A DNA stretch of 64,000 nucleotides from Moraxellaceae bacterium UBA2031. GTDB taxonomy: Bacteria > Pseudomonadota > Gammaproteobacteria > Pseudomonadales > Moraxellaceae. Shown here in pieces: positions 17,969 through 53,428 of this stretch (positions within the stretch are counted from its first letter, which is position 1; each line of letters opens with the position of its first letter). The position numbers were made by a program, and so were the translations under genes. The DNA lies in the NCBI GenBank assembly GCA_002333145.1, contig DDBN01000081.1, positions 27,331 to 91,330 on the forward strand, written 5' to 3'. Below the pieces are notes generated by a model. It did no database searches. It was not told the DNA's origin and saw only the letters and a program-made list of their open reading frames with translations.

Positions 17969-18340
17969 TTACTTGGGAGCGCGTGGAGCCAGCTTTTCTT
18001 TGATACGTGCGGACTTGCCCGAACGATCGCGGAGGTAGTACAGCTTGGCGCGACGAACGTCACCACGACGCTTCACTTCGATGGAAGCAACCACCGGAGA
18101 GTGCGTCTGAAACACACGCTCAACACCGATACCATTGGAGATCTTGCGTACGGTGAAAGCAGAGTTCAGGCCACGGTTCTTCTTGGCGATAACAACGCCT
18201 TCGTAAGCCTGCAGACGCTCACGCTCACCTTCTTTCACCTTCACCTGAACGATAACAGTATCGCCCGGGCCGAAAGACGGCACGTTTTGCTTGAGTTGGG
18301 ACTGTTCAACGAATTGAACCAGGGGATGCTTGCCGCTCAT
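17969..18340 (-). CDS. rplS: 50S ribosomal protein L19
   Basis: 123 aa. Classic L19 sequence ([30 protein letters not shown]). Confidence 0.97.
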
Positions 18341-18475
18341 GGCATTTCCTCAATTTTATGGTGACAGAGGCTTTGAACGGGCTTTTTTGTGAGACCGTTC
18401 GGCGCATACCCACCGTTACACACCTGGCCCGCCGGTTACCCGGCAAACCCATGGAGATGAAAGGACCTTGCGGAC

Positions 18476-19243
18476 CTATTCACCCTCGCCGCTTTCGCGA
18501 CGGATATCGTCAAGCAGTTTTATCTGCTCTTTATCCAGCGTGACCTTTTCCAGAAGATCAGGACGACGCTGCAATGTTCTGGCCAGACTTTGTTTTCGGC
18601 GCCATTTTCGGATAGCCGCATGGTCACCCGATAACAGAACTGCCGGTACCTCATCCGCCTCATACACTTCTGGGCGAGTGTAGTGCGGGCAATCCAGTAA
18701 GCCATCACTGAAGGAATCCTCTTCAGCGGAGGCCTCACTGCCAAGCGCACCTGGCAGCAAACGCGTCATTGCATCAATCAGCACCATCGCAGGCAGCTCA
18801 CCACCCGACAACACGTAATCACCGATTGACCATTCTGCATCGACTTCGCGCTGAATAAGACGCTCGTCGACTCCTTCATAACGACCACAAAGCAGAATCA
18901 TCGCCTCCGTAGTCGCTAACTCCTGCACCCCTGCCTGGTTTAACACCCTGCCCTGTGGTGACAGGTAAATTACATTCGGCGTCAGGCCCTTAGCCCGAGC
19001 AGCCTCTTTGGCTGCCGTGATCGCGCACCGTAATGGCTCGATCAACATCACCATGCCGGGGCCACCCCCATACGGGCGGTCGTCCACGCGGCGAAAATTA
19101 CTTTCGGAATGCCCCTCAACATAATCACGAGGATTCCAGTATTCCAGCGCCAGCAAACCGTTCTTCACGGCGCGGCGAGTAATACCACTATCGGTCACCG
19201 CCTGAAACATTTCCGGGAACAGGCTGATTACCCCGATCCACAC
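18476..19243 (-). CDS. trmD: tRNA (guanine37-N1)-methyltransferase
   Basis: 255 aa. TrmD SPOUT-knot motifs ([33 protein letters not shown]). Confidence 0.95.
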
Positions 19244-19261
19244 CTCAGGCGCCTCGCCTGC

Positions 19262-19810
19262 TCAAAACTCTGGATCCCAGTCGACGGTAATCATCCTGCC
19301 GACCAGATCAACATCCTTTATAACTTCACCTGGCACCCAAGGTACCAAGCGCTCAAGCTCATCCATGCTGCCCTCTGATGCCTGAACGACCAGCACATCA
19401 TTAGCGCCTGTTTCCATCATGCTGTGTACAGTGCCCAGCAGCTGACCATCTTGGGTTCGCACGGAGAGATCAATGAGGTCTGACCAATAGTAGTCACCCT
19501 CTTCCAGCTCCGGGAGAACATCCTTCGAAACCCATATCTCAAGGTTACGCAAGGATTCGGCCGCGTTACGGTCAGGAGAGATGTCGAGTTGAGCGACAAC
19601 GCCCTTACCCTGCGTACGCCACTCCAGCACCTTGACTGGCCTGAACCCCTCACGGGTTTTCAGGTACCAAGGCTGGTAGCCAAAAAGATTGGTAATGGGG
19701 TCGGTCAGGGCATGCACCCAGACCCACCCCTTCACGCCGTAGGGCGTACTAACGTGCCCTACGTTGATGAGATCGGAGGCTTCCGGCACCGCCGGTGCCT
19801 TCGTATTCAT
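19262..19810 (-). CDS. rimM: ribosome maturation factor RimM
   Basis: 182 aa, with RimM and PRC-barrel regions. Located between rpsP and trmD. Confidence 0.9.
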   Translation of the reverse strand: MNTKAPAVPEASDLINVGHVSTPYGVKGWVWVHALTDPITNLFGYQPWYLKTREGFRPVKVLEWRTQGKGVVAQLDISPDRNAAESLRNLEIWVSKDVLPELEEGDYYWSDLIDLSVRTQDGQLLGTVHSMMETGANDVLVVQASEGSMDELERLVPWVPGEVIKDVDLVGRMITVDWDPEF

Positions 19811-19815
19811 CTGTA

Positions 19816-20064
19816 TCAGACTGCCTTGGCAGCGGCCTTGGCCAGAGCGGCAACGCGCTCAGACGGCTGTGCGCCCTTGGAAACCCAGTACTGATAACGC
19901 TCAGAGTCAAAACGGACACGCTCTTCCTGACCCTTGGATACTGGGTTGAAGAAGCCAACGCGCTCGATGAAACGGCCATCACGGGCGTTACGGCTGTCGG
20001 TCACAACGATGGAGTAAAACGGACGCTTCTTGGCGCCGCCACGTGCAAGGCGAATAGTAACCAT
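19816..20064 (-). CDS. rpsP: 30S ribosomal protein S16
   Basis: 82 aa from ATG 20064 ([17 protein letters not shown]...), preceded by AAGGAA. The track ORF is over-extended to 20163. Confidence 0.96.
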
Positions 20065-20146
20065 GATCAATTTCCTTAACTGGGTTCCCGTGGTCAATCG
20101 ATCCGCGCGAGTGCCACGGAAATCAACCCGGCGCGGAAGGTCGCAA

Positions 20147-20152
20147 ATTATA
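20147..20152 (-). promoter_or_regulatory. candidate -10 box of rpsP operon promoter
   Basis: Perfect TATAAT on the minus strand, about 85 nt upstream of the rpsP ATG. The -35 region is weak (TTTCTT). Confidence 0.3.
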
Positions 20153-20252
20153 CGGGGAATCACTATCCGAAGAAAGCCCGATTATCCCTACTCGCGAATA
20201 GGAGGAGTATCATGGTCGCGCATTCCGGCCACTGCCCGAGATCCCCCACTCC

Positions 20253-21095
20253 GTGCTCAATCAATCCATACGGAAAGGTGCCGCCCTACTGGCCCTTTCA
20301 GCTTTTCTGTTTGCGACGATGGGCGTTTTCATCCGGCTGGCATCGCATTCCGTAGATAATGAAATCGTGGTTTTTGCCCGGAACTTAGCAGGCCTCATCC
20401 TGCTACTGCCCATTATGATGACGCGAGGCGGTGGTGGGCTGAAAACAGCCGTATTTCCTCGCCACCTCTGGCGCGCCCTGACAGGCCTAACGGCGATGTA
20501 TGGCTTTTTTTACGCCATTGCCAACCTGCCACTCTCCAGCGCCATGATTTTTACCTACTCGTCACCGGTCTTTATTCCACTGGTCGCGTGGATATTCCTG
20601 AAAGAGCCCATGACACGACAGGCCTGGGCTGCCGCTCTGGTTGGCTTGGCCGGTGTAATACTGGTGTGCAAACCAGACCAGGGGCTTGTAAACCACTTTG
20701 CAATAATCGGCCTTGGCTCCAGTGTCTTGGCGGCTACCGCTTTTGTCACGGTACGATCACTGGGCTCAACAGAGCCCACTACTCGGGTCGTTTTCTACTT
20801 TGCCCTTATCTCCACCGTTGTATCGACCATCCCACTGCTGTGGGCGGGACGCGCCATCACCCTGCATGAATTCGTATTACTGGCCGCCGTAGGCGTTCTG
20901 GCCACGGTCAGCCAACTCTGCCTGACCCGTGCCTATGCTTTGGCGCCTGCCAATCGTATTGGCCCCGTCACCTATTTAGCTATTGTGGTTGCTGGTCTGT
21001 ATGCTTGGGCGCTGTGGGGTGAAGTGCCGGATGGCTATGCGATTATTGGGACCGGTATGATTTTGGCTGCATCACTCATCAGCCTGCGCCGCTGA
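20253..21095 (+). CDS. DMT/EamA-family transporter
   Basis: 280 aa, about 10 TM helices, two EamA repeats. GTG start without an obvious RBS (see the finding on the upstream out-of-frame RBS/ATG). Confidence 0.75.
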   Translation: MLNQSIRKGAALLALSAFLFATMGVFIRLASHSVDNEIVVFARNLAGLILLLPIMMTRGGGGLKTAVFPRHLWRALTGLTAMYGFFYAIANLPLSSAMIFTYSSPVFIPLVAWIFLKEPMTRQAWAAALVGLAGVILVCKPDQGLVNHFAIIGLGSSVLAATAFVTVRSLGSTEPTTRVVFYFALISTVVSTIPLLWAGRAITLHEFVLLAAVGVLATVSQLCLTRAYALAPANRIGPVTYLAIVVAGLYAWALWGEVPDGYAIIGTGMILAASLISLRR

Positions 21096-21141
21096 CAACC
21101 TTCCCTAAGTGGCACATCTAATTCTTCAACACCTATAAACA

Positions 21142-21169
21142 ATGAAGCCCGCTACGTTGCGGGCTTCAT
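21142..21169. terminator. bidirectional terminator between EamA gene and ffh
   Basis: ATGAAGCCCGC-TACGTT-GCGGGCTTCAT, an 11-bp perfect stem between convergent genes. Confidence 0.7.
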
Positions 21170-21174
21170 CAGGC

Positions 21175-22629
21175 TTATTTCTTCTTGAATCCGGGAGGCA
21201 GACCCACTCCACCCGTGCCTGGTAGTCCGCCCATGCCACCTGCTCCACCCATACCGGGTGGCATACCGCCTCCGCCCTGCCCCATCATTCCCTTCATGCC
21301 GCGCATCATCTTCATCATGCCGGAAGGAGAAGACATCTTTTTCATCATCTTTTCCATCTGGGTGTGCTGCTTGAGCACACGATTCACGTCCTGAATCTGG
21401 GTACCAGAGCCGGCGGCAATACGACGCTTACGCGACCCATTAATCAGGTCTGGTTTGTGGCGCTCGGCCATGGTCATGGAAAGAATGATGGCTTCCATCC
21501 GCTTCATTTCTTTTTCAGGCGCCCCTCCGGCCAATGCCTGCTGAACCTGAGCACTGTTCATGCCCGGCAGCTTGTCGAGCAGGCCACCCATGCCACCCAG
21601 ATTGCGCATTTGCTGGAACTGCTCAAGCAGGTCCTGCAGATCAAAGCCCTTTCCCTTCTTAAGCTTATTGGCCAGTTTCTCGGCCTTGTCTTTGTCCAGC
21701 TTACGTTCGACTTCTTCGACCAGCGAGAGCACATCGCCCATGCCCAAAATACGGGAAGCCACACGATCGGGATGGAAGGGCTCTAGCGCATCGGACTTTT
21801 CACCCATACCAAGAAACTTGATGGGCTTGCCGGTAATCATGCGCACGGACAACGCCGCACCACCGCGGGCATCACCATCGGTCTTGGTGAGGATCACGCC
21901 GGTCAGCGGCAAGGCATCATTAAATGCCTTGGCCGTATTGGCCGCATCCTGGCCCGTCATGGCATCCACCACGAACAGGGTTTCGACCGGGTTGATCGCC
22001 GCATGCAGCGACTTGATTTCGCCCATCATCTCTTCATCAATATGAAGACGACCGGCAGTATCGATGATGACGACATCGGCAAACTTCAGCTTCCCTTCGG
22101 CGATGGCACCACGGGCAATGTCATTCGGGTGCTGATCAGGCGTCGAAGGGAAGAAAATGGCACCGACATCGGCGGCAACCATCTCCAGCTGCCTGATAGC
22201 GGCAGGGCGGTAAATGTCGGCCGAGACCACCAGCACCTTTTTCTTCTCACGCTCCTGTAAATATTTCGCCAGCTTGCCCACCGTGGTGGTTTTACCGGCA
22301 CCCTGCAGACCAGCCATCAGGATGACTGCTGGCGGCGTGGTCGCAAGGTTCAGGGATTCATTGGCATCGCCCATGGTGCGCACGAGCTCGTCGTGCACGA
22401 TCTTTACAAAGGCCTGGCCTGGTGACAGGGCCTGCATGACCTCCTGCCCCAGTGCCTGTTCACGGATACGGTCAATGAAGTCCTTGACCACCGGAAGGGC
22501 GACATCCGCCTCCAGTAGAGCCATGCGAACTTCCCGCAGGGTGTCCTTGATGTTGTCCTCGGTCAGACGACCGGAGCCCGTGACATTGCGAAGGCTGTGA
22601 CTGAGGCGATCGGTGAGGTTATCGAACAT
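21175..22629 (-). CDS. ffh: signal recognition particle protein Ffh
   Basis: NG domain (GLQGAGKTTT, DTAGRL, TKTDGDARGG) and a Met-rich M domain with a Gly/Met-rich tail. Start at MFDNLTDRLS (22629). Confidence 0.96.
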   Translation of the reverse strand: MFDNLTDRLSHSLRNVTGSGRLTEDNIKDTLREVRMALLEADVALPVVKDFIDRIREQALGQEVMQALSPGQAFVKIVHDELVRTMGDANESLNLATTPPAVILMAGLQGAGKTTTVGKLAKYLQEREKKKVLVVSADIYRPAAIRQLEMVAADVGAIFFPSTPDQHPNDIARGAIAEGKLKFADVVIIDTAGRLHIDEEMMGEIKSLHAAINPVETLFVVDAMTGQDAANTAKAFNDALPLTGVILTKTDGDARGGAALSVRMITGKPIKFLGMGEKSDALEPFHPDRVASRILGMGDVLSLVEEVERKLDKDKAEKLANKLKKGKGFDLQDLLEQFQQMRNLGGMGGLLDKLPGMNSAQVQQALAGGAPEKEMKRMEAIILSMTMAERHKPDLINGSRKRRIAAGSGTQIQDVNRVLKQHTQMEKMMKKMSSPSGMMKMMRGMKGMMGQGGGGMPPGMGGAGGMGGLPGTGGVGLPPGFKKK

Positions 22630-22785
22630 CGGGAACATCCGCTTAGAGTGAAACAGGGGACCGATTATAGGGAAGGCGTGGCGTGCTGTCGCCTCATGAG
22701 CATGTCTTACCCCCCAGTTCAGGGGATTGGGTTACCCGGACAGCCTTGCTAGCGTGACAGCCATACTACCGAAGGAGTCCGGGAC

Positions 22786-24837
22786 ATGCGCCACCACACA
22801 TATGCCTCATTATTTGCATTTACCTTGCTGACCGCCGGCCTTACCGGGTGTGGCAGCGACGACAATCCAGTAACAGGAGGTGGAGGTGGAGGAACGACCA
22901 CAGCCACCGCTACAGTTACCCCATCACTAGGCAAGGTATTCAATGCAGGCATTGAGGCACGTTGCATGCCAACAGGTGTCGTCATGGGGTCGGGGGATAC
23001 CGGAGCAACTGGCAGCATCGCCATCACACTGACCGGGACTTGCTCAGGCCCCGTCATCGTTGAGCTGGTACCCAATGGCTCTTCCACTTATTTTGATGAG
23101 GCCTTGGGCAGCATTGTTGCCTTGCCAATTGGCACAACCCTTCGCGCTATCGTGCCCTCATTTACAGGCAGCTCACTCGCTGTTGCCGTCACGCCATTAA
23201 CCGAAATCGCTACACAGCAGGCGCTGACGACTGCCGGGAACATTGAGACCTCCGTCACTACAGCCCAGGCAACAACCGCCAACAGTAATGTTGTTACCCA
23301 GGTACTGGGTGCAGGCGTGACTCTCGACATTCTCACACCACCGACAGGATGGGACGCAAGCACCGCGGCAGGCAGTCTGGGAACAAGCGAGGCAGATCGT
23401 TATGCCTACTATCTCGCCTCCCTGGCACGCATGGGCGGAACTACCGGAACGCCAGCAGTCATTGTCACGGAGACCCTGGCGAACGACCTTGCCGATGGCA
23501 CATTGAGTGGCGGCACAAGCGGTACATTCACTTACACCAGTGGTGACTTCACCACACAACTGGATAGCGCCATCAATGCGATGGCCAGCTATGCGACCCC
23601 TGAGCTGCAGTCTGCCGTGGGAGTCATTGCAGCGAATATCACGGGCTTTTCACCCGACAGCGGCGCAGTTGACAGTACAGTCACCATTAGTGGCGCTGGC
23701 TTTGACAGCGACCTGTTCCACATGGTGGTGACATTCAGCAACGGCGTTGCAGCAGAAATAGTCAGCTCCTCTGCAACGGAAATCGTCGTAAAAGTGCCTG
23801 CAGGGGCTGTCAACGGCCCGATCACTGTGACAAACACCATCAGCAACACAACATCGACATCAACCGGCAGCTTCACGGTAACAGGCGGCGGCAGTACCCC
23901 AGGCACATGGACGGCACGCACCACACCCAGCAGCTATGTGCTCTACAGCATCGCTCATGGCAGTGGTGTCTTTGTCACCGGAGGCTATAACCGGACGATC
24001 CTGACCTCAACTGACGGGGTATCCTGGACCGCACGAACGGCACCTGACAGCAATTTTTATCAGATCAACTCGATCACCCATGATGGTAGCCAGTTTGTGC
24101 TGGTCGGGGACTCGTCCAGCTACACGACGATTGCACCTGTCATTGCCACATCCTCCGATGGTGTGACATGGACTCGCCGCAACTGGACCAACAGCGGCAG
24201 CGAGACCCAGCTGGTAGACATTGCGGCCAGTGGCAGCAGGCTGACGGCTGTAGGAATCAATGGCACCATCATTACGTCTACAGACGGTGGTGCAACCTGG
24301 AGCAATGAAGCCCTGCCTTCGCTCTCGGTAGGCTATATCTCGGCTCTCAATGGTGTCGCGGGAAACAGCACCACGCGTATCGCCGTCGGCAAGGACAGCT
24401 CATCAAGAGGCGTCATCATCATCAACAGTGGATCTGGATGGACAACCGCAGCCACCGCGCTGACCGACTTCATTCCACGCGATGTAATATGGACCGGAAC
24501 ACAGTTTGTCGCAGTTGGCGCCTCCTCCGTCAATTTTGGAGCCAACTCGGTGGTCATGACATCGCCTGACGGCTCCACCTGGACCAACCAGACGATTCCG
24601 ACTACCGCTGCGCCAGCCGGCTACAACCTGAGTGACGTTGCCTGGAATGGCAGCAAGCTCTTTGCCGCAGGTGGCAATGACGGCTCATCGCGGGTGATTA
24701 TCTCGTCAGCTGATGGCATTACGTGGATACAGGAGCACCTCGCTACGCTTACAGGCCAGACCGCACTGTCGGGTGTAGCGGCGTCCTCCTCCCTCGTCAT
24801 CGCTGTGGGTGGCACCAGGGCCGTTACCAACCCTTGA
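22786..24837 (+). CDS. large lipoprotein: Thr/Gly-rich N-region, IPT/TIG domain, Asp-box (BNR) beta-propeller
   Basis: Lipobox LTGC at residues 19-22, followed by a G6/T-rich linker. IPT/TIG-like segment ITGFSPDSGAVDSTVTISGAGF...GPITVTNT. At least five SxDxGxTW Asp-box repeats (TSTDGVSWT, SSDGVTWT, TSTDGGATWS, TSPDGSTWT, SSADGITWI). AAGGAG RBS. Confidence 0.8.
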   Translation: MRHHTYASLFAFTLLTAGLTGCGSDDNPVTGGGGGGTTTATATVTPSLGKVFNAGIEARCMPTGVVMGSGDTGATGSIAITLTGTCSGPVIVELVPNGSSTYFDEALGSIVALPIGTTLRAIVPSFTGSSLAVAVTPLTEIATQQALTTAGNIETSVTTAQATTANSNVVTQVLGAGVTLDILTPPTGWDASTAAGSLGTSEADRYAYYLASLARMGGTTGTPAVIVTETLANDLADGTLSGGTSGTFTYTSGDFTTQLDSAINAMASYATPELQSAVGVIAANITGFSPDSGAVDSTVTISGAGFDSDLFHMVVTFSNGVAAEIVSSSATEIVVKVPAGAVNGPITVTNTISNTTSTSTGSFTVTGGGSTPGTWTARTTPSSYVLYSIAHGSGVFVTGGYNRTILTSTDGVSWTARTAPDSNFYQINSITHDGSQFVLVGDSSSYTTIAPVIATSSDGVTWTRRNWTNSGSETQLVDIAASGSRLTAVGINGTIITSTDGGATWSNEALPSLSVGYISALNGVAGNSTTRIAVGKDSSSRGVIIINSGSGWTTAATALTDFIPRDVIWTGTQFVAVGASSVNFGANSVVMTSPDGSTWTNQTIPTTAAPAGYNLSDVAWNGSKLFAAGGNDGSSRVIISSADGITWIQEHLATLTGQTALSGVAASSSLVIAVGGTRAVTNP

Positions 24838-24853
24838 GCAGTACTCACCCTTG

Positions 24854-24887
24854 AAAACGGGCAGGCGTAAGCCTGCCCGTTTTTTTA
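24854..24887 (+). terminator. strong rho-independent terminator after lipoprotein gene
   Basis: ACGGGCAGGC-GTAA-GCCTGCCCGT (10-bp perfect stem) followed by T7. Confidence 0.85.
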
Positions 24888-24988
24888 TGTTCGTAGCGGC
24901 AAACTCTCCAACCCTTCCAGTTGAACAGGGCGATCAATTCGGCCCACCTGGCCGACCCAGCAGTCTACGCACTGTTAGCGAATATTTT

Positions 24989-25017
24989 TCGACAGCGTCG
25001 ATTTCATCAGCAATACT
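24989..25017 (+). promoter_or_regulatory. candidate sigma70 promoter of yfiR-like operon
   Basis: TCGACA-N17-AATACT, about 50 nt upstream of ATG 25068. By-eye match only. Confidence 0.25.
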
Positions 25018-25067
25018 TGAGGGTAGTCGGACAACAGAATCCGGTAGAGGCACGAAGGAATGGCTTC

Positions 25068-25601
25068 ATGAGGCATTGTCCTCTACAGAAATTGGCAAGG
25101 ATCGTTCTGCACGGCCTGATCGGCTTGTTGGCAGCGGCTGTTGTTCATGCCGAAAACTCAGAGGCCGACATCAAGGCGGCCTTCATCTACAACTTCGCCA
25201 AGTTTGTGGAGTGGCCGGAAGGCACTTTTACTGACAGCAAGGACAGACTCCTGCTGTGCACACAGGGTGACACTGTACTTGCCCGGAAACTTCGCCTTCT
25301 GGCGGGACGAGAGGCACAGGGACGGACCATAGAAGTTCGGCCACTAACAGGAGCCGAAGCCACAACCGGCTGCCACATCCTGCTGACACCATCCGCAGGT
25401 GAAGTCCCGGCCCAGGGTCGCAATCCCACACTAACCATCAGCGAGTCCACCAGCACGGCACGCACGAACAGCATGATCAACCTGTTTGTCGATGCCAATC
25501 GTGTCCAGTTTTCCGTCAACCTGCCTGCCACTCAACAGGCAGGCATAAAAGTCAGTGCGCGACTGCTACAACTCGCACGCACCGTGAACAAGGGGGCCTG
25601 A
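25068..25601 (+). CDS. YfiR-like (DUF4154) periplasmic protein
   Basis: 177 aa from ATG 25068 (GAAGGAA RBS). Signal peptide ...LLAAAVVHA. Hallmark [16 protein letters not shown] and two Cys ([15 protein letters not shown]), as expected for the family. Confidence 0.8.
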
Positions 25602-25602
25602 C

Positions 25603-27537
25603 ATGCGCCTTCTTGAAAAGCTTCCATTACAGAAAAAGTTTCTCAGCGTCATTTTGCTCACTGCAGGAACAGCATTGCTACTGGCCTGGCTTGCATTTGC
25701 ACTGACTGCCGCCCTGAAAATGAAGGAAGACCTTCATGCCCGTCTGAGCACGCTCACAAATGCAACAGCATTTAACCTGCAGGCCGCAATGGCCTTTAAG
25801 GACCAAGGCGAAGCCCGCACCATCCTGTACTCTCTCAAAGCAGAGAACAGCATAACAAATGCCTGCATATTTGATCGAGCCCAATCCGGATTTGTCAGCA
25901 TAAGGCTCTCTGGTAATGACAATGACTGCACTCTTTCCCAATATGACCAAAGCTTTTTTACACAACACATCCACGCAAATCAGCCCATAACGCTTGACGG
26001 GGAAATACTCGGCCACCTCCACATAGATGCAGACCTCGGTTATCACTGGCAGATGTTGGCCCTGTATCTCCTTGTCATGGCCGTCCTTGCACTGGCCTCT
26101 CTTGCCTTGGCCACAGCCCTTGGCATGCGTCTGCTAAGTCAGGTCACTACCCCAATTTTACAGCTTGCCGCCACTGCCGAGAATATTTCAAAAAACCAGG
26201 ACTACACCGTGCGTGCCAACGTTTGGAGCAAGGATGAAATAGGAACCCTGGTACACAGTTTCAATGAAATGCTGGCACAGATTGAAGCCCGTGACGCAGA
26301 ACTGGCACGCCATCGTGAAGGACTTGAACAACTCATTGAAGCCCGAACAAGCGAACTGCGTCATGCAAAAGATGCAGCAGAAGCAGCAAGCCGCGCCAAG
26401 TCCCTTTTCCTGGCCATGATGAGTCATGAAATACGAACCCCCATGAACGGGGTACTAGGCATGACAGAGTTACTCTTAGACAGCCCGATGAGTGCAGAGC
26501 AACGCCGACAGGCTGAGGCTGTACATCATTCTGGCGAGTCACTGCTTGCAATCATCAATGACATTCTCGACTTTTCAAAAATTGAAGCCGGAAAGCTTGA
26601 ACTGGAAAACATTCCGTTCATGCCTTCTCAGGTTGTACATGATGTACTTGAGCTTTTATCCGAACGTGCCCACAACAAAAACCTTGTACTTCAATGCACG
26701 ATTGACCCCGATGTTCCATCCGAAGTACGAGGCGACCCCAACAGGATACGGCAGATCCTGATCAACCTAACGGGTAATGCCATAAAGTTTACAGAGACAG
26801 GGAACATCCATGTTTCATTGCACTGTGAAGACCGTAATGAAACAAATATTGGATTGCGTATTGAGGTTTGCGATACGGGCATCGGTGTAACCCAGGATGC
26901 CCTTGACTCCCTCTTCCAGCCATTTATTCAGGCCGACAGCTCTCATGCGCGCCGTTTCGGCGGTACCGGTCTTGGTCTTGCCATCGTCAAACAACTTGTG
27001 GAAATCATGGGTGGCCACATCGAAGTACGGTCACGAATTGGTGGGGGCACCTGTTTTTCTTTCAGGCTCAACCTTCAGCCCACCCAGACAGTATCACCAA
27101 CATCAAATAATCAAGCAGCGCTCCCTTCCTCAGCGAAACACAAAGATCTTCAAGGCATAAAGATACTGCTGGCTGAAGACACACCAACCAATCAGGAAGT
27201 GGCCCGTGCCATGCTTAAGCGCCTTGGCTGCACGGTTGATGTTGTCTGTAATGGCAGGGAAGCATTGCAATATCTTTCCTCTCAGCATTACGACATTGTT
27301 TTGATGGATTGCCAGATGCCGGAAATTGACGGCTTTGAGGCAACACGCCAATTACGCCAAATGGAAAAACAGAATAGCTGGCGCCACACCCCGGTTATAG
27401 CAGTTACAGCAAGCATTCTTCGTGACGAACATGATGCCTGCATCAGCAGTGGAATGGATGATTTTCTGGCAAAGCCCTTCAAACAATCAGCACTGCATGA
27501 TGTCTTGCAGCGCTGGCGGCCGGAGCACCTAGAATGA
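25603..27537 (+). CDS. hybrid sensor histidine kinase (TM-periplasmic YfiN/CHASE8-like-TM-HAMP-HisKA-HATPase-REC)
   Basis: 644 aa. The ATG lies 1 nt after the yfiR-like stop. Two TM helices flank a periplasmic segment of about 150 aa. HAMP ([12 protein letters not shown]...[12 protein letters not shown]), H-box [13 protein letters not shown] boxes ([23 protein letters not shown]), receiver [14 protein letters not shown] ... KPF. Confidence 0.9.
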
Positions 27538-29678
27538 AAAAATGCAAGGAAACCCTGTTGAGAGGGAAAGGCAAAATGCACATGAACCGCTCATGGATAG
27601 GCTACATTCTGCTGTGTACCGCCACCCAACAGGCAATCGCAGAAGAGGACTTGTTCGCACTGCCTCTGGAAGAGCTGTCCCGACTCGAAGTAAGCATTGC
27701 CACCGGCACACCAAAACCGATTACATCAGCACCCGCAATTGCCAGTGTCATCACTGCCCATGATATTGAAGCAATGGGCGCACAGGACCTGGATACAGTC
27801 CTGGAAATGGTACCGGGCCTTCATGTCTCGCATGGCGGCTTCATTTATGCGTCGCGATACTTCATGCGAGGCATCGTCTCCACCTATAACCCGCACACGC
27901 TTGTGCTCATCAATGGCATTCCCCAGACAAGCCTGTTCACGGGAGACCGGGGCGAACGACTGGTTGCCATGACCGGCTTACCTGTTCAGATGATCGAGCG
28001 CGTGGAGATCATTCGTGGCCCCGGCTCTGCCGTTTATGGTGCTGATGCCTTTGCCGGAGTCATCAACATCATCACCAAACGACCAGAGGACATGCAGGGT
28101 GGCCAGGCAACCCTCGCTTATGGCAGTTTCAACACCCCAAAAGCATCATTGCAACAGGCTGGCTCCATTGGCCCAGTACGTGCCCTCATTTCACTATCAT
28201 ATGCCAGCAGTGACGGTGATGACCCCGTCATCAATGCCGACTACCAGAGCAGCCTCGATGCACTTCTGGGTACCACTGCTTCCTACGCCCCAGGACCAGC
28301 CAATCTTGCCTGGAAGAATTTTGACGCCCGCACCGATTTCGTATGGAGCGATTTCCGGCTGCGCATGAGTCACCGGCGCAGCGAAGGAGAAACCGCACAG
28401 GGCATCAACGAGTCGCTGGACCCGGGAGCACGCTTCCCTCACCACCGGAGCAACGTCGACCTGACCTGGAGTGCCCCTGACATCCGCCAGAACTGGGATG
28501 TTGAAAGCCAGATCAGCTACCTGTACAGCGACTTCCGCAACCCTACGTCCATCCGGCAATTTCCTCCCGGTGCATTTGGCCAGTTCCCCGAAGGCGTACT
28601 GCAGACACCCGAGTTATCGGAAGAAAACGCCCGCATCCACCTCACTGCCCTTTACAAGGGTTGGAAAGAACATCAGGTGCGAATTGGTGGCGGCTACTAC
28701 TGGGGAGACATTTTCAAGACAACCGATGCGGTCAATTATGTTCTGCTACCGGGCAATCCGGTCCCCCAGCCGCGCCCGGGTGGACTGCAGGATGTCAGCG
28801 ACTCTCCGGAAGCCTTTCTGCCCGAAAACCAGCGAACCAACTCCCATGTTTTCGTGCAGGATGAGTGGCAGATGGCAACAGACTGGACCCTGACTGCCGG
28901 CCTTCGCCATGACCACTACTCCGACTTTGGTGGCGCCACCAATCCCCGCCTTGCCGTGGTCTGGAGCACAAGCCCGACACTCACCACCAAGCTGCTTTAT
29001 GGCGAGGCCTTTCGTGCACCTGCCTTTTTTGAGCTCTACGCCACGAACAACCCCGTCGCACTTGGCAACCCCGACCTTGAACCGGAAAAACTTGAAAGTC
29101 TGGAAGCCGGGTTTTCATGGCGCCCTCACGAGTCATGGACATGGGACATCAACTTCTACCACTTCCATATCAATGACTTTATCGACTTCGTAAGTGATCC
29201 TGGCAACAGCACCTTTACTGCCCGCAATACCGGCACCATTGAAGGCACAGGACTGGAAACCGAACTGCGCCACGACTGGAGCAGCACTCTCCAGATACTG
29301 GCCAATTACAGCCATCAGCAAACCCGGGAAGAAATCACTGGCGCCCCACTGGGGCTGGCACCCAGTGCTGATGCCAGTCTCCGCATGATCTGGGAGTTTC
29401 TGCCACAATGGCAGCTGACCCCGCAATTTGTATGGGTTAGCGAAAGCAAACGACAGGCCGGTGACTCACGGGCACCGATGGATGGCTACACAACGCTTGA
29501 CCTGACAGCGCGCAAGCTATGGCCCCGAGGCAGTCTGAGCCTGACAGGACGCAACCTGTTTGATGCCAATGTGCAAGAAGCCAGCAGAGGCCCTGAAACC
29601 AGCACGGTCGCGCCTATTCCTGGTGATCTGCCGCAGGCAGGCCGAAGTCTGACCCTGGAGGCAACCCTTAACTGGTAA
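27534..29678 (+). CDS. TonB-dependent outer-membrane receptor
   Basis: The ATG at 27534 overlaps the kinase stop (ATGA); alternative starts are at 27576 and 27582 (MHMNRSW...). Signal peptide, plug ([48 protein letters not shown]), a long barrel, and a terminal aromatic residue (LEATLNW). No STN/FecA-type N-terminal extension. Confidence 0.9.
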
Positions 29679-29819
29679 TCATGCCCCCAGCAGGGAGGGG
29701 AGTAAGCACAGGGGGCCATTCCCTTCAAAATTTTCGCCCCTTGTGCCACACTGCCGGCTCGTCTCGGCAGCCATCGCCACCTTCTTCATCCTGCTACCGA
29801 AACAAGGAATCGTCGCATC

Positions 29820-30620
29820 ATGAATGCAACACTGGCCGGCATTGCAGCCGCCCTGTTGTACACCGTGGCCAGCGCCATGCTGGGCCGCCAACTGCTTCGT
29901 CGTGAAAAGCCACGCGCCCCGGTCATACAGGCGCTGGGTGGCCTTGCGCTGCCGTTGCACCTGATTTCCATTCATGCACAGATCTATCAGCCCACCGGAC
30001 TTGATCTTGGACTTTTCCATATAAGCTCGCTGGTGGGCTGGCTGATTGCTGCACTGGCCATCGGCATGAGCCTCTACAAACCCATCATCAGCATCACTGT
30101 TGCGGCATTCCCGCTGGCGATACTGGGCCTGACACTGTCACTGTTTGCTCCATCGACGTACACGCCCGGCAACCTCTCTCCGGGTGCCGAATCACACATA
30201 CTCCTCTCCATACTGGCGTACAGCGTGCTGACTATTGCTGCTGCACAGGCGCTTCTGGTTGCCGTTCAGGACAGGCACTTGCGCACTCACAAGCAGGGCC
30301 TGATGAATGCACTGCCTCCCCTGCAAACCATGGAAAGCCTGCTGTTCAGCCTGATCTGGACGGGTTTTTCTCTGCTGTCGTTGGCGATTCTGTCCGGCTT
30401 CCTGACACTGGATGATCTTTTTGCACAGCATTTGGTTCACAAGACGCTGCTGACACTGGCGGCGTGGGTCGTCTTTGCCACCCTGTTAACAGGGCGCTAC
30501 TTATTAGGCTGGCGCGGCAGTACCGCTATTCGTTTCACACTCTGGGGCTTTGGCCTGCTGCTGCTCGGATTTTATGGCAGCAAACTGGTCTTGGAGCTCA
30601 TCCTTCAGCGCGGTGCGTGA
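29820..30620 (+). CDS. ypjD: YpjD / CcsA-like cytochrome c assembly family inner-membrane protein
   Basis: 266 aa with 8 TM helices. It is followed by a corB/yfjD-like gene, as in the E. coli ffh-ypjD-yfjD neighbourhood. Confidence 0.8.
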   Translation: MNATLAGIAAALLYTVASAMLGRQLLRREKPRAPVIQALGGLALPLHLISIHAQIYQPTGLDLGLFHISSLVGWLIAALAIGMSLYKPIISITVAAFPLAILGLTLSLFAPSTYTPGNLSPGAESHILLSILAYSVLTIAAAQALLVAVQDRHLRTHKQGLMNALPPLQTMESLLFSLIWTGFSLLSLAILSGFLTLDDLFAQHLVHKTLLTLAAWVVFATLLTGRYLLGWRGSTAIRFTLWGFGLLLLGFYGSKLVLELILQRGA

Positions 30621-30661
30621 CGCTGACTGGCCCCTGCCCGTTAAACTCCTAATTCCTATTT

Positions 30662-31939
30662 ATGGTGGCAACTCCTGTGGGTACTGCTTCACTTAGCTTA
30701 CTTTTCACCATTCTGATTGTGTGCGTTGTCTTCTCAGCCTTCTTCTCTGGCTCTGAGACCGGCATCATGACTGCTAACCGTTATCGCCTGAAACACCAGG
30801 CCAAGACGGGCAATAAATCAGCTCAGCGCATTCTTAATCTGCTCGCCCATCCAGACAAACTGATTGGCGTTATCCTGATTGGCAACAACATCACCAATGT
30901 TGCTGCGTCCTCCGTTGCTACCCTGATTGGACTTCAAATGGCAGGCGATTCCGGCGTAGCAATTGCGGCTGGCGCGCTGACCTTCGTCATTCTCATCTTC
31001 GGAGAGGTTGGCCCTAAAACGTTTGCCGCCAAGCATCCAGAGGCCGTCGCCCACGTTGCAGCACCCGTCCTCAATGTATTGCTAAAACTGCTGTCACCTC
31101 TCGTCTGGATTATTAACGTAACGACTAACACGCTGTTTCGGCTGAACTCCCTTGCCAAGGGCGATCACAAACTAAATACCGATGAATTACGCACATTGGT
31201 GCAAGACGTTTTCTTACCTAAACAGCACCGCAGCATGCTGCTAGGCGTACTGGAATTAGACACCATTACGGTTGACGACATCATGATCCCTCGTGGCGAC
31301 GTTAACGGCATTGATATTGAGGATGATCTTGAAGACATCATCAAACAACTGAGGTCCACCCAACACACACGAATGCCTGTTTTTAGGGACAGCATTAATG
31401 ACTGCATCGGCATATTGCATACGCGTGATGCGTCCCGCTTTATGGGCAAACCCGACCTAACCAAAGCAGAAATTTTGCAGTATGTTCGCGAGCCCTACTA
31501 TGTTCCTGAAAGTGCATCGCTGCCTGCGCAGCTGATCAATTTCCAAAAGCAGAAGGGTCGTTTTGGATTGGTCGTGGATGAATATGGCGATGTGCAGGGA
31601 ATTGTTACGCTCGAAGATATTCTTGAGGAAATCGTTGGCGAATTTACGACCAGCATGACGGATAGCCACAAGGACATGCTGCCGCAACCCGATGGTTCAT
31701 GGGTTATTGATGGTAGCACCAGCATTCGTGACATTAATCGACAGTTGCACTGGCAACTGCCCTTGAACGGCCCTCGCACACTCAATGGCTTGATCATCGA
31801 CACACTGGAAACCATTCCAGAGTCGTCACTTTCGCTGCGGATAGGAAAATACATGATCGAAGTTTTGCAGGTACGGGACAACACCGTTAAAACTGCAAAA
31901 CTTGCCATACTCCCGTCAGCATCAAGCTCACAAAAATAG
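30662..31939 (+). CDS. corB: CNNM/CorB-family (DUF21-CBS-CorC_HlyC) transporter
   Basis: 425 aa. N-terminal DUF21 TM domain, a CBS pair and a C-terminal CorC/HlyC domain (WVIDGSTSIRDINRQL). Confidence 0.88.
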   Translation: MVATPVGTASLSLLFTILIVCVVFSAFFSGSETGIMTANRYRLKHQAKTGNKSAQRILNLLAHPDKLIGVILIGNNITNVAASSVATLIGLQMAGDSGVAIAAGALTFVILIFGEVGPKTFAAKHPEAVAHVAAPVLNVLLKLLSPLVWIINVTTNTLFRLNSLAKGDHKLNTDELRTLVQDVFLPKQHRSMLLGVLELDTITVDDIMIPRGDVNGIDIEDDLEDIIKQLRSTQHTRMPVFRDSINDCIGILHTRDASRFMGKPDLTKAEILQYVREPYYVPESASLPAQLINFQKQKGRFGLVVDEYGDVQGIVTLEDILEEIVGEFTTSMTDSHKDMLPQPDGSWVIDGSTSIRDINRQLHWQLPLNGPRTLNGLIIDTLETIPESSLSLRIGKYMIEVLQVRDNTVKTAKLAILPSASSSQK

Positions 31940-41172: not shown

Positions 41173-41841
41173 TCAGACAGATGCTGGCGGGTTGATGCGG
41201 ATTTCCACACGACGGTTCTGAGCACGGCCGTTTTCAGTGGAGTTGTCTGCAACTGGCTGGCTCTTACCCATGCCATTGGCAGAGATACGAGCACCATTTA
41301 CACCGCGGCTGATGACATACTGAGCCACGGAGCGAGCACGCTCACTCGACAGGTTCAGGTTGTAGTCATCACGGCCGACGTTGTCGGTATGGCCAGAGAT
41401 GGAAATAGAGGTCTTGTTGTACTCTTTGAGTACATCAGCCACAGCATCCAGCACGGGATAGAAATCACCGCGCACACTGCTCTGGTTAGTAGCAAAAGTG
41501 ATGTTACCTGGCATGATCAGGGTAATAGCACCTGTTGCCTTATCCTTCTGCACACCAACGCCCACACCAGCAAGACGCTCACGCAGCTTAGCTTCCTGAT
41601 AGTCCATGTACGCGCCAACACCACCGCCCGTCACACCGCCGATAGCAGCACCCTTAAGTGCAGCCTCTTTACGTTCTTTCTTGTTGTCGCCAGTCGAGTA
41701 ACCAATAGCCGCACCAGCAACCGCACCAATGCCGCCACCAATTGCAGCTTTGCTAACCTGACGCTCACCCGTGTAAGGATTAGTAGTACAGCCGGCAAGG
41801 GCCACAACAGCCACGAGAGCCGAGGCAGTCAAAATACGCAT
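41173..41841 (-). CDS. OmpA-family lipoprotein (glycine-zipper + OmpA_C domain)
   Basis: Lipobox LAGC, a glycine zipper (GGGIGAVAGAAIG), and the peptidoglycan-binding motif ISGHTDNVGRDDYNLNLSSERA...NRRVEI. Confidence 0.88.
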   Translation of the reverse strand: MRILTASALVAVVALAGCTTNPYTGERQVSKAAIGGGIGAVAGAAIGYSTGDNKKERKEAALKGAAIGGVTGGGVGAYMDYQEAKLRERLAGVGVGVQKDKATGAITLIMPGNITFATNQSSVRGDFYPVLDAVADVLKEYNKTSISISGHTDNVGRDDYNLNLSSERARSVAQYVISRGVNGARISANGMGKSQPVADNSTENGRAQNRRVEIRINPPASV

Positions 41842-42576: not shown

Positions 42577-42661
42577 GCGCCAGTGGCGAAACTGGTAGAC
42601 GCGCTGGATTTAGGTTCCAGTCCTTTGCGGGGTGTGGGTTCAAGTCCCTCCTGGCGCACCA
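42577..42661 (+). tRNA. tRNA-Leu (anticodon UAG), CCA encoded
   Basis: 7-bp acceptor stem GCGCCAG/CTGGCGC, D-arm GGCGAAACTGGTAGACGC, anticodon arm CTGGA-TTTAGGT-TCCAG, a long variable arm, T-loop GGTTCAAGTCC, and 3' ACCA. One U-U mismatch in the T stem. Confidence 0.9.
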
Positions 42662-50728: not shown

Positions 50729-53428
50729 CTAGCCAGTGTTTCGAAGGCCGGCGGCAATACCGGCAATAGTCACCATCAAAGCCTGATCAAAAGCGGTGCT
50801 TTCCTCTCCAGCCTGCCGTCGGCGCAACATCAGCTCGGCCTGAAGCATGTGCAAAGGCTCGATGTAGGGAGTTCTGACATTAATTGAACGACGTAGTACG
50901 GGGTAACTCTGCAGCAAAGGCCTTCCGCCATTGGCCGCCAGTAGAGCATCAACTGTCACCATCAAACGGCGACGCAGTTCCTGACCCAGTACCTGTAGAC
51001 CGGGATCACCCGCAGCCAGGCGCTCCTCGTAATTCTCCACAATCGCTGCATCCGCTTTGGCCAGTACCATTTCCAGCATATCCAGCACCGCGTGGAAGTA
51101 AGGCCATTCCCGTGCCATTTCATGTAACTGTGTCGTGCGGCCACTGTCCATGGCCATATTCAAGGCACGACCAGTACCCAGCCAAGCCGGCAGCATGAGT
51201 CGAACTTGCGTCCAAGCAAATACCCACGGAATTGCCCTTAGTGACTCCACCCCACCTTGCACGCGGCGTCTGGCTGGCCGAGAACCCAGTGGCAATAACT
51301 GCAATTCTCGTTCGGGCGTTACTGTCCGCAAATAACGAATAAAGTCAGGGGTGTCTTGGACCGTTTCCCGATAAACCGCGAGCGATACTTGGGTCATTTC
51401 CTGCATCAGATCGCGCCACTCCTGACGTGGCAATGCCGGAGGCAATAATGAGGCTTCCAACGTTGCAGAGGCATACAAATCAAGATTACGAACGGCGATC
51501 CCAGCCATACCAAACTTGAAACGGATCATTTCCCCCTGCTCTGTTACTCGTATGGCACCATTGACTGAACCAGGCGGCTGCGACAGCAACGCCTGATGGG
51601 CTGGCGCCCCCCCTCTACTGACAGAGCCACCTCGGCCATGAAAAAGCGTCAACGTCACGCCATGCTGGTTTGCCACATCCGTTAATGCCTCCTGCGCCCG
51701 ATACTGTGCCCAACTCGCTGCCAAAAAGCCCGCATCCTTAGCCGAATCCGAATAACCAATCATTATTTCTTGATGACCATTGATGATGTCGCGATACCAC
51801 GGAATCGACAGCAAGGCATCCAGACAAGCACCCGCTCCGTTTAAATCATCGAGCGTCTCAAACAGAGGAACCACCCGCATCAAAACGGGCATCTCTGCTT
51901 TTTGCTGCAACAACATCACGGCCAGAACATCACTGGGCTGTTCAGCCATGGAAATAACATAAGCGCCCAGAGAGTCAGACGGCTGCACCGCCAGCTCCCG
52001 GAAAGTCGCTAGCACTTCCTGTACTTCCGTTGAATGCAGGGGATGATCAGCGATGAGCTGGGGATGATCTGGCAATAAGGGGCGTGGGTTTTTCAGCTCT
52101 TGCAGTAAAAATTTCTGGCGTGCCGTCTCATCCCATTCAGCATAGCGACCAATGCCAAGGAATTGCGTAATAGCATCCAGAGTCTGAGTGTGCCTAGCTG
52201 ACTCCTGACGTACATCCAGCTTGAGCAACTCCACACCAAAACAGGCCAGTCGCCGGATCATATCCAGCAAATCACCATTAGCAACATCCTCCAGGCCACT
52301 ATCGAGTAATGACTGATAGCATAACTGCAACGGCTCTAAGAGCTCGGCAGATGTGCGATATATACCACTATCATCGGATGACTCATGACGTAATTCAGCA
52401 TCCAGCCAATCCCGGGTAAGCGTCAGCCGTTGCCGCACTGCTCGCAATAAATCACGGTAAGGCTCATTACTTTCCTGCCCCACTATCTGTCGTAATGCGG
52501 CACTACAATCTGACATCGACAGCTCAGCTCGCAGCGTTTCCACATCTTTCAGATAAAGATCGGCGGCCATCCATCGAGCCAGTAAGATCACTTCACGCGT
52601 AACATGATGCGTTACATTCGGATTTCCATCCCGATCTCCTCCCATCCATGATGCAAACCGAACCGGAGAGCGTGTTAGTGGCAAACGCTCACCGGTGTAC
52701 TCATAAAGTACCGCATCAAATTCACGCAGAAACTGCGGCACTGCCCGCCAGAGTGATTGTTCAATGACGGTAAAGCCCCACTTTGCCTCATCAACAGGTG
52801 TTGGTGGATGCTTTCGTATTTCATCAGTGTGCCATGCCGCGATAATGTGACGACGCAAAACAGATAGCTCTGCATCACGCTCTACTGGCGTCAATGCTGC
52901 ATGATCTAGCCGTTCCAACGAGTCCGCAATATCATCATATTTTCGAATTAGCGTGCGTCGGCTTACCTCGGTTGGATGGGCAGTGAGAACCAGTCCAATA
53001 TCCAGTTTTTCTACCGCCGAAAGAATACTTTCTTTCGACTGCCCCTCACTGGCTAAACGTGAGAAAAGGGCACGGACTGAACCCAACTGGGGAGGCTCAT
53101 CGGAACGCCACTGATGTGCACGTCGACGCCTTACCCGGTGATACTGTTCAGCAATATTGGCCAGATTTAGAAATTGAGTAAATGCACGAGCAACAGGCAG
53201 AAGTTCATCATCGCCAAGACCAGATAAAAGACCAATCAATTCATCCCGCGCACCTGTTACACCATCCCGTGCCTGCTTTCCCAAGGAACGAATACGTTCA
53301 ACCTTGTTAAAAATATCCTGCCCAGCTTGGTGACGCAGAGCATCTCCCAGCATTCGTCCTAGCAAGCGAACATCATCGCGTAACGGAGCATGTGCATCAG
53401 ACATATTCAAAAGACTGTATCTCCACAT
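50729..53428 (-). CDS. ppc: phosphoenolpyruvate carboxylase
   Basis: Motifs VLTAHPTE, GYSDSAKDAG, FHGRGGSVSRGG and the C-terminal RNTG. The real start is probably MSDAHAPLRDDV (ATG 53404). Confidence 0.96.
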   Translation of the reverse strand: MWRYSLLNMSDAHAPLRDDVRLLGRMLGDALRHQAGQDIFNKVERIRSLGKQARDGVTGARDELIGLLSGLGDDELLPVARAFTQFLNLANIAEQYHRVRRRRAHQWRSDEPPQLGSVRALFSRLASEGQSKESILSAVEKLDIGLVLTAHPTEVSRRTLIRKYDDIADSLERLDHAALTPVERDAELSVLRRHIIAAWHTDEIRKHPPTPVDEAKWGFTVIEQSLWRAVPQFLREFDAVLYEYTGERLPLTRSPVRFASWMGGDRDGNPNVTHHVTREVILLARWMAADLYLKDVETLRAELSMSDCSAALRQIVGQESNEPYRDLLRAVRQRLTLTRDWLDAELRHESSDDSGIYRTSAELLEPLQLCYQSLLDSGLEDVANGDLLDMIRRLACFGVELLKLDVRQESARHTQTLDAITQFLGIGRYAEWDETARQKFLLQELKNPRPLLPDHPQLIADHPLHSTEVQEVLATFRELAVQPSDSLGAYVISMAEQPSDVLAVMLLQQKAEMPVLMRVVPLFETLDDLNGAGACLDALLSIPWYRDIINGHQEIMIGYSDSAKDAGFLAASWAQYRAQEALTDVANQHGVTLTLFHGRGGSVSRGGAPAHQALLSQPPGSVNGAIRVTEQGEMIRFKFGMAGIAVRNLDLYASATLEASLLPPALPRQEWRDLMQEMTQVSLAVYRETVQDTPDFIRYLRTVTPERELQLLPLGSRPARRRVQGGVESLRAIPWVFAWTQVRLMLPAWLGTGRALNMAMDSGRTTQLHEMAREWPYFHAVLDMLEMVLAKADAAIVENYEERLAAGDPGLQVLGQELRRRLMVTVDALLAANGGRPLLQSYPVLRRSINVRTPYIEPLHMLQAELMLRRRQAGEESTAFDQALMVTIAGIAAGLRNTG

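Follow-up and report, generated by a model that had tools for sequence, protein, structure and literature searches.

A conserved gene module of a YfiR-like protein, a CHASE8 hybrid histidine kinase and a TonB-dependent receptor with a candidate role in trans-envelope signalling

What does a TonB-dependent receptor (TBDR) do beside a periplasmic YfiR-like protein and a sensor kinase? The question is raised by a 64,000-nucleotide stretch of contig DDBN01000081.1 of Moraxellaceae bacterium UBA2031 (hereafter the window), in which three open reading frames (ORFs) on the same strand fill positions 25068-29678 (+) and encode a YfiR-like protein, a hybrid histidine kinase and a TBDR. In YfiBNR, the periplasmic YfiR represses the diguanylate cyclase YfiN, and the Pal-like outer-membrane lipoprotein YfiB sequesters YfiR. 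YfiBNR has become a textbook example of signalling from the envelope to the cytoplasm and, to our knowledge, only its cyclic di-GMP (c-di-GMP)/YfiB form has been studied. A preliminary description of the window had proposed that the same repressor and sensor are joined here to a His-Asp phosphorelay, with the TBDR in the place of YfiB. The three ORFs were recovered with the boundaries it assigned to them (Table 1) and contain the peptides it quoted. We find that the trio is a real module with wide conservation, whose best place is among the YfiR/YfiN-type periplasmic-repressor systems, as a variant with a kinase output and a TBDR as the linked outer-membrane component.

Conservation of the trio and its sensor core

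The host belongs to an uncultured member of the Moraxellaceae, for which MAGs (metagenome-assembled genomes) of 89-95% identity were matched. One genome per species was scanned with an alignment of YfiR-like proteins, which confirmed 343 relatives, and the best 80 loci were analysed. At the ORF level a TBDR directly flanks the YfiR-transducer pair in at least 60 of these 80 loci. This figure combines two adjacency counts and includes L007, L012, L029, L032 and L077, which were missed by one of them; many of the other loci lie on contigs that end early. As a background, among the remaining large ORFs of these loci 5 of 217 encode TBDRs (2.3%). Co-conservation of the three genes, set beforehand as a test that could refute the module, was thus borne out. 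Adjacent TBDRs are carried by Proteobacteria, Acidobacteriota, Nitrospirota, Desulfobacterota, Verrucomicrobiota and Bacteroidota, and culturable carriers include Fluviicoccus keumensis, Agitococcus lubricus, Zoogloea oryzae and Alkalimarinus sediminis.

The product of the gene downstream of the yfiR-like gene (n = 66, window included) contains CHASE8 in 56 loci, HAMP in 59, HisKA in 55, REC in 48 and a fused Hpt in 16, while GGDEF and methyl-accepting chemotaxis protein (MCP) domains were found in 2 loci each. The YfiR-CHASE8 core is wired far more often to histidine kinases, and in most of the sampled species-level genomes it is coupled to a TBDR. The upstream gene encodes a TBDR in 39 of 55 loci. 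The order TBDR-YfiR-kinase occurs in most phyla (Acidobacteriota, Nitrospirota, Desulfobacterota, Verrucomicrobiota, Bacteroidota and Beta- and Gammaproteobacteria), and the order YfiR-kinase-TBDR in Moraxellaceae, Fluviicoccus and Agitococcus. A recurrent fourth gene was not found: no TonB/ExbBD, inner-membrane transporter or OmpA-like protein is a conserved neighbour in the relative loci. A conserved gene for TonB/ExbBD, an inner-membrane transporter or a lipoprotein was also sought upstream of the receptor in 35 loci and rejected, as the 83 Pfam families found there each occur in at most three loci.

It is highly improbable that the three genes are functionally unrelated and came to lie side by side in the window through a chance insertion between ffh and ypjD. 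The block does interrupt a conserved housekeeping backbone, which suggests acquisition as a cassette. However, an accident is contradicted by the co-occurrence statistics, with the same trio in at least 60 species-level genomes and in two conserved orders, and it sits badly with gene junctions that overlap or lie 1 nt apart.

The first gene of the trio encodes a secreted protein that matches the Pfam DUF4154 'YfiR/HmsC-like' model over its full length (E = 7.9e-35). By sequence it is a distant YfiR homologue (phmmer against YfiR in the PDB, E = 1.4e-4), and it does not reach the cutoff of the YfiR equivalog model sequest_YfiR of NCBIfam (NF053586; 40.7 bits, cutoff 85). The model YfiR_like_TOL0243 (NF053591) is a near miss (119.1 bits, cutoff 125). 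An AlphaFold2 model built with 22 homologues in the alignment has a mean pLDDT of 85.9, and its top 15 fold matches in the PDB are all Pseudomonas aeruginosa YfiR (target-normalised TM-score about 0.7, E about 2e-8). The next matches are single-domain and two-lobe substrate-binding proteins (SBPs), namely a Rhodothermus marinus SBP, 3LFT and 3LKV. Likewise, the nearest non-YfiR folds of YfiR itself are amino-acid-binding SBPs (fold search; PMC4655355). The R. marinus protein, termed a 'single-domain substrate-binding protein' (PDB 5Z6V, 6K1X, 6K1Y and 8WGL), matches with a TM-score of about 0.4-0.47. Its authors place such genes near MCP genes and draw no connection to YfiR. Since Malone et al. 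(2012) counted R. marinus among the distant carriers of yfiNR, this crystallised protein may be a member of the YfiR family under another name.

Both cysteines pointed out in the preliminary description were found. Cys64 and Cys102 of the window protein correspond to the Cys71/Cys110 pair of YfiR and are invariant in 22 relatives; in YfiR this pair is redox-sensitive and redox control is established (PMC4655355). The second pair, Cys145-Cys152, is not kept, as the aligned positions are Ala and Asn. In P. aeruginosa this disulfide is needed for folding and stability and borders the YfiB interface (PMC4655355). The YfiB-contacting part of YfiR around it (Glu144/Ser146) is not conserved in the window protein either.

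The second gene encodes a kinase in which the H, N, G1 and G2 boxes and the receiver Asp (LMDCQMP) are intact. Its CHASE8 assignment was upheld by the Pfam model, and HAMP, HisKA, HATPase and REC were all matched as described earlier. The segment between the two transmembrane (TM) helices (about residues 39-149) is roughly 110 amino acids (aa) long, shorter than the 150 aa first estimated. Residues 4-143 are collinear with residues 8-147 of Escherichia coli DgcN (YfiN) (BLASTP, 27% identity, E = 6e-10). In this alignment AAMAF of the kinase pairs with AAVVF of YfiN, the motif that was assigned to YfiR binding (PMC3375315), so that AAxxF is kept. By Pfam, a GGDEF domain is absent, with HisKA, HATPase_c and REC instead, and no Hpt is fused to the kinase. 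The NCBIfam model HK_near_YfiR_like (NF053592) scores 155.9 bits and does not reach its cutoff of 194. Since CHASE8 is collinear with DgcN and AAxxF is kept, a YfiR-YfiN-type sensor core is present and, as had been proposed, it has a His-Asp output. By analogy, the prediction that the YfiR-like protein sets the activity of the CHASE8 kinase as YfiR does that of YfiN is well supported.

The part played by the receptor

The third gene encodes a TBDR that consists by Pfam of a Plug and a barrel only. An STN/FecA-type extension was not found, in agreement with the preliminary description, and the Plug begins 28 residues past the predicted signal-peptide cleavage site; the TonB box is placed by position and similarity only. 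Its closest solved relatives are CirA, BtuB, PirA and FepA, mostly across the plug region. The NCBIfam model TonB_dep_TOL0244 (NF053590) is not reached (156.9 bits, cutoff 645), and judged by its sequence the window TBDR belongs to another TBDR clade than TOL_0244. A receptor-specific N-terminal signalling epitope was considered and rejected, because the TonB-box motif LSLEEL...V..A[ST] occurs equally in linked and unlinked receptors.

The block encodes no YfiB, the third gene being the TBDR. The sole YfiB-like sequence in the window lies 12 kb away from the module (41173-41841, -) and is an OmpA-family lipoprotein whose N-terminus has a glycine zipper. It was rejected as an unlinked YfiB, as it scores 252.7 bits with the YiaD family (cutoff 175) and 107.4 bits with YfiB (cutoff 128).

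Comparison of the trios indicates that the receptor does not follow the core closely. For 41 complete trios the Spearman correlation of pairwise identities was 0.43 between YfiR and CHASE8, 0.22 between YfiR and TBDR, and 0.13 between kinase core and TBDR. Fluviicoccus and Agitococcus share the gene order of the window and are 43-49% identical to it in YfiR and 57-64% in the kinase core, but just 20-22% in the TBDR. The TBDRs of more distant gammaproteobacterial trios are 36-38% identical to that of the window. From these identities it appears that TBDRs are swapped between orthologous YfiR-kinase loci and that the receptor is exchangeable in evolution.

Seven TBDR homologues from outside the Moraxellaceae (46-66% identity) were located in their own contigs. 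Five of them (52-66%) have no DUF4154 nearby and are solitary or stand in tandem arrays. Marinobacter sp. SS21 encodes three tandem TBDRs (L081, 5480-12088) and M. mobilis two (L084, 8001-12335), 59-61% identical to that of the window. Going by these Marinobacter arrays, expansion of the receptor clade does not depend on the sensor module. Solitary homologues, again with no DUF4154 nearby, lie on a JGI metagenome contig and, with 52-54% identity, in an Alcanivoracaceae MAG (L085) and on a TARA gammaproteobacterial scaffold (L087). The neighbours of the last two encode enoyl-CoA hydratase, thioesterase, alcohol dehydrogenase, esterase, SDR and FMO/BVMO-like monooxygenase-type proteins. One of the seven homologues belongs to a module, in Alkalimarinus (DUF4154, CHASE8 kinase, REC, REC-GGDEF-EAL and TBDR). 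Another belongs to a look-alike, in Nitrosococcus halophilus Nc4 (CP001798.1; L082, 8001-16468), where a TBDR 46% identical to that of the window stands with an SDR, an ABC_sub_bind protein (PF04392) and a hybrid kinase of 1499 aa with REC, Hpt, GGDEF and EAL.

Four loci have two diverged tandem TBDR-YfiR pairs before one kinase, which is a CHASE8-type transducer where present: Geomonas limicola (L044), a Deltaproteobacteria MAG (L070), a Betaproteobacteria MAG (L073) and Geobacter sp. UBA698 (L078). Identity within these pairs is 34-79% for the TBDRs and 42-67% for the YfiR proteins. Since TBDR and YfiR duplicate as a unit, each receptor has its own YfiR. This pattern fits YfiR as the cue-specific element and suggests that the tandem pairs are multi-input versions of the module.

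The reading that we favour, and to which we give about an even chance, is that the TBDR gates periplasmic sensing by the YfiR-like protein, which in turn would modulate the kinase. The YfiR-like protein, whose single lobe has a fold akin to that of periplasmic binding proteins, would bind the hybrid kinase of the inner membrane at its CHASE8 domain. The TBDR would be the entry gate, letting an extracellular compound into the periplasm with TonB energy and so setting which cue is sensed. As no inner-membrane transporter is linked, the compound would go no further inward. It would alter the YfiR-like protein, either by direct binding or by redox change at the conserved Cys pair, and thus shift the YfiR-CHASE8 equilibrium, by which the kinase would be switched. 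Phosphate would then pass from His to Asp within the kinase and on to an Hpt protein and a response regulator that are not linked to the module.

Alternatively, the TBDR could take the role of YfiB, as the preliminary description had it. A ligand-loaded TBDR would expose its TonB box or a plug surface, capture the YfiR-like protein, free CHASE8 and so de-repress the kinase, with no STN domain or anti-sigma factor involved; proteins would then signal across the envelope by touching one another directly. This is conceivable but doubtful. It would account for a linkage between TBDR and YfiR-like protein that is tight, spans phyla and is mostly direct adjacency, for the duplication of the two as a unit, and for the conserved translational coupling of kinase and TBDR, while neither YfiB nor an inner-membrane transporter is linked. 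In addition, a competing outer-membrane partner has a precedent, because the YfiB- and YfiN-binding surfaces of P. aeruginosa YfiR overlap (PMC4655355). However, the TBDRs of orthologous loci have diverged as far as described above and are polyphyletic relative to unlinked homologues. The linked receptors lack any specific feature, having a generic N-terminus without extension, and the YfiB-contacting part of YfiR is lost. Docking would need something that every TBDR shares, e.g. an exposed TonB box. A related claim, that the YfiR-like protein senses by physical contact (for instance at the TonB box or plug face on ligand loading) which state an extension-less TBDR is in and relays its occupancy to the kinase, is likewise unlikely. 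If it were true, contact reading would be a third widespread TonB-dependent trans-envelope mode beside FecA/FecR transducers and import-then-sense systems, with the receptor as a plug-in specificity module, and TonB-dependent signalling would gain a new principle, contact instead of import. Entry through the receptor is favoured over docking because of receptor swapping, a clade that is not dedicated to the module, the generic N-terminus and unit duplication; the SBP-like fold of YfiR and the Nitrosococcus analogue favour it as well. The proposal of a TBDR in the place of YfiB is thus unproven and disfavoured, given also that homologues of the receptor mostly occur without YfiR.

A further possibility is that the TBDR is a co-expressed or regulated cargo transporter and not an upstream component, much as other receptor genes lie beside their own regulators, and that the YfiR-kinase pair senses something else, e.g. 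envelope redox via the Cys pair in the manner of canonical YfiR. We consider this rather unlikely. The invariance of the redox-sensitive Cys71/Cys110 pair and the established redox control of YfiR (PMC4655355) agree with it, as do the occurrence of the TBDR clade alone beside catabolic genes and a core that seems self-sufficient in loci without a linked TBDR. On the other hand, it leaves unexplained why, across six phyla, no neighbour but the receptor recurs and other genes of uptake or catabolism are missing, and why an extra YfiR accompanies each extra TBDR. Moreover, the block has no DNA-binding regulator that would make the TBDR a local target.

Several points weigh against TBDR-gated sensing. 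Firstly, the core can work where no receptor is linked to it, given that in about 10 full-length loci the YfiR-kinase pair has no TBDR within a distance of 8 kb. Secondly, because the Cys145-Cys152 disulfide is absent, the behaviour of the YfiR-like protein may differ from that of canonical YfiR. Thirdly, all three window proteins score under the trusted cutoffs of the NCBIfam models for a similar trio. Fourthly, gene linkage fits an entry gate, a docking partner or a regulated target alike. Lastly, the pointers to a ligand are hints that come from the gene context of unlinked homologues and from induction of TOL_0244 on n-C28. The neighbours of the L085 and L087 receptors, the n-C28 induction and the origin of L026 from a diesel enrichment give a weak hint that the receptor clade handles hydrophobic substrates.

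Full-length loci with a CHASE8 transducer and without a TBDR in the surrounding 8 kb include L009, L018, L019, L022, L025, L026, L031, L033 and L034. In the Alcanivoracaceae MAG (L025) a TBDR of the window type lies about 75 kb off on the same contig (L085).

In the window kinase the receiver is the last domain, so that an unlinked Hpt protein and regulator would be needed. The 64-kb window was searched by tblastn with probes taken from relatives (Hpt, REC, GGDEF and EAL). The search yielded neither an Hpt gene nor a stand-alone REC gene and matched only a second, unrelated hybrid kinase; the absence of both from the block had been noted before. In relatives, the gene after the kinase encodes a receiver domain in 12 of 36 loci and REC-PAS-GGDEF-EAL in 6-7 of 36. 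Since REC-PAS-GGDEF-EAL often follows the kinase, c-di-GMP turnover may still be the final output. Of the earlier statement that the module uses neither sigma/anti-sigma logic nor c-di-GMP synthesis, the first part stands, as the block has no such pair, and the second is weakened by these relatives.

The module offers a testable hypothesis for the working of many 'orphan' TBDRs and CHASE8 kinases in environmental bacteria, and it suggests a pointer to the natural cues of YfiR-family proteins.

Transcription unit and genomic setting

The trio looks like a single operon. An intrinsic terminator and a promoter-like site lie upstream of the first gene (Table 1), the kinase ATG follows the TGA of the yfiR-like gene after 1 nt, and the ATG of the TBDR overlaps the kinase stop (ATGA, 27534-27537). 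Together these features make the trio apparently one transcription unit. The 1-nt gap and the overlap, both claimed earlier, were confirmed, the overlap by direct reading of the sequence, and the ATGA overlap of kinase and TBDR is retained in the relatives L001, L007, L008, L011 and L012. The promoter candidate is backed by its position alone, because such sites are no commoner in the region than in shuffled sequences. Alternative in-frame ATGs of the TBDR are present at 27576 and 27582, each also with a purine-rich stretch 5' of it. For the first gene a longer, TTG-initiated ORF from 24921 is possible; the ATG at 25068 has AGGA upstream and leads straight into the signal peptide, which counts for the ATG start over TTG. 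A search with Rfam at gathering thresholds gave no riboswitch or other RNA element upstream of the receptor and matched only a tRNA at 42577-42658.

Table 1. Features of the module and its 5' boundary in the window.
Feature	Position	Strand	Details
Intrinsic terminator	24853..24884	+	14-bp stem with 8 G-C pairs, then T run; 3' of the upstream lipoprotein gene; 5' boundary of the transcription unit
Sigma-70-like promoter candidate	24989..25017	+	TCGACA-17-AATACT; weak evidence
YfiR-like periplasmic protein, 177 aa	25068..25601	+	DUF4154; signal peptide ends ...AAAVVHA, followed by EN; conserved Cys64 and Cys102
Hybrid sensor histidine kinase, 644 aa	25603..27537	+	TM1 residues 13-38, CHASE8, TM2 residues 150-174, HAMP, HisKA, HATPase, REC
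CHASE8 periplasmic sensor, residues 41-141	25723..26025	+	Pfam E = 6.1e-15, 55.8 bits (cutoff 27); contains AAMAF
HAMP, residues 178-228	26134..26286	+	Pfam E = 1.9e-12
HisKA, residues 265-330, and HATPase_c, residues 377-492	26395..27078	+	Pfam E = 1.5e-21 and 1.6e-30
C-terminal REC, residues 521-635	27163..27507	+	Pfam Response_reg E = 2.7e-28
TBDR, 714 aa	27534..29678	+	Signal peptide; TonB-box region; Plug residues 64-176 (E = 9.4e-24); barrel residues 254-675 (E = 9.9e-50)

Within 17990-31939 of the window, the module and the lipoprotein gene upstream of it are inserted between ffh and ypjD. The flanking backbone rplS-trmD-rimM-rpsP / ffh / ypjD-yfjD is the same as in E. coli K-12, where the canonical yfiR-dgcN-yfiB operon adjoins this backbone on the side of rplS; old synteny may explain this, or it may be chance. 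A gene for an EamA-family transporter (20253-21095) is also inserted, between rpsP and ffh. The upstream gene (22786-24837, +) encodes a predicted lipoprotein of 683 aa with the lipobox LTGC, an IPT/TIG domain and BNR/Ycf48-like beta-propeller repeats. It was rejected as a member of the module, since it has its own strong terminator and among the loci scanned only L003 has such an upstream neighbour; it is probably outside the module.

The second hybrid histidine kinase of the window (53472-56273, -) is of the 7TMR-DISMED2/7TMR-DISM type, with a RetS/LadS-like architecture, two receiver stretches and no Hpt. It adjoins phosphoenolpyruvate carboxylase (50729-53428), and a small GGDEF-domain protein is encoded divergently from it (56571-57644, +).

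Comparison with known systems

The module shares several features with YfiBNR/TpbB/DgcN (HmsCDE in Yersinia): a secreted DUF4154 protein of the YfiR fold with the Cys71/Cys110-equivalent pair, a TM-CHASE8-TM-HAMP transducer with AAxxF, a yfiR-like gene directly upstream of that of the transducer, and a gene for an outer-membrane protein in the operon. Its output, however, is a hybrid histidine kinase where YfiN has GGDEF, and its outer-membrane gene encodes a 22-strand TBDR where YfiBNR has the Pal/OmpA-like lipoprotein YfiB. Its YfiR-like protein differs as well, being without Cys145-Cys152 and below the cutoff of the YfiR equivalog. Since GGDEF and YfiB are both absent, the module is not YfiBNR proper.

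The preliminary description had put the module forward as a candidate undescribed one, which holds for at most part of it. Cores of YfiR and YfiN[PAS/HAMP] were found in silico to be widespread and modular, usually without YfiB, with outputs that include histidine kinase, hybrid kinase, Hpt and MCP (Malone et al., 2012; PMC3375315). That study placed such systems in Acidobacteria, Geobacter, Opitutus, Rhodothermus, Desulfobacterium and Thauera, and its Thauera system, in which one hybrid kinase goes with two YfiR homologues, is matched by the tandem TBDR-YfiR loci. Its text and supplements contain no mention of TonB-dependent receptors. What is added here to the cores of 2012 is the receptor link, its statistics and receptor swapping. 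A related trio is also present in NCBIfam (release 20) as three associated models, NF053590 (TOL_0244 TBDR), NF053591 (TOL_0243 YfiR-like) and NF053592 (kinase, YfiR-like protein-associated). These are the same three components, and the window proteins match all three models. The window trio is a relative of that trio and not an equivalog, because its scores are under the trusted cutoffs (156.9/645, 119.1/125 and 155.9/194). For the locus that gave these families their names, the one functional result found is a sevenfold rise of the TOL_0244 protein on the n-C28 alkane in Thalassolituus oleivorans (PMC6304351). For the link between TBDR and YfiR no paper was found in the open-access literature searched, and here the description as new may still hold.

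Unlike the FecA-FecR-FecI transducers, the module has no STN domain and no anti-sigma or extracytoplasmic function (ECF) sigma factor gene; its neighbours are ffh, the lipoprotein gene, ypjD and yfjD. Its intermediary would be a soluble periplasmic protein and its output a His-Asp phosphorelay. The Nitrosococcus halophilus cluster is alike in that a TBDR stands near a periplasmic-binding-protein-like gene and a hybrid kinase, and PF04392 proteins (3LFT and 3LKV), the family of its ABC_sub_bind protein, are the nearest non-YfiR folds to YfiR. It is an uncharacterised cluster, which has the two-lobe SBP family in place of DUF4154 and a kinase without CHASE8.

In PfeS/PfeR-PfeA and PirS/PirR-PirA of P. 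aeruginosa, and in the SusC/D systems with hybrid two-component proteins of Bacteroides, import through a TBDR is followed by periplasmic sensing by a two-component kinase. The same import-then-sense logic is favoured for the module. It differs from these systems in having no linked DNA-binding regulator, and whereas in them the periplasmic domain of the kinase itself detects the ligand, the module would interpose the YfiR-like protein between the imported compound and the kinase.

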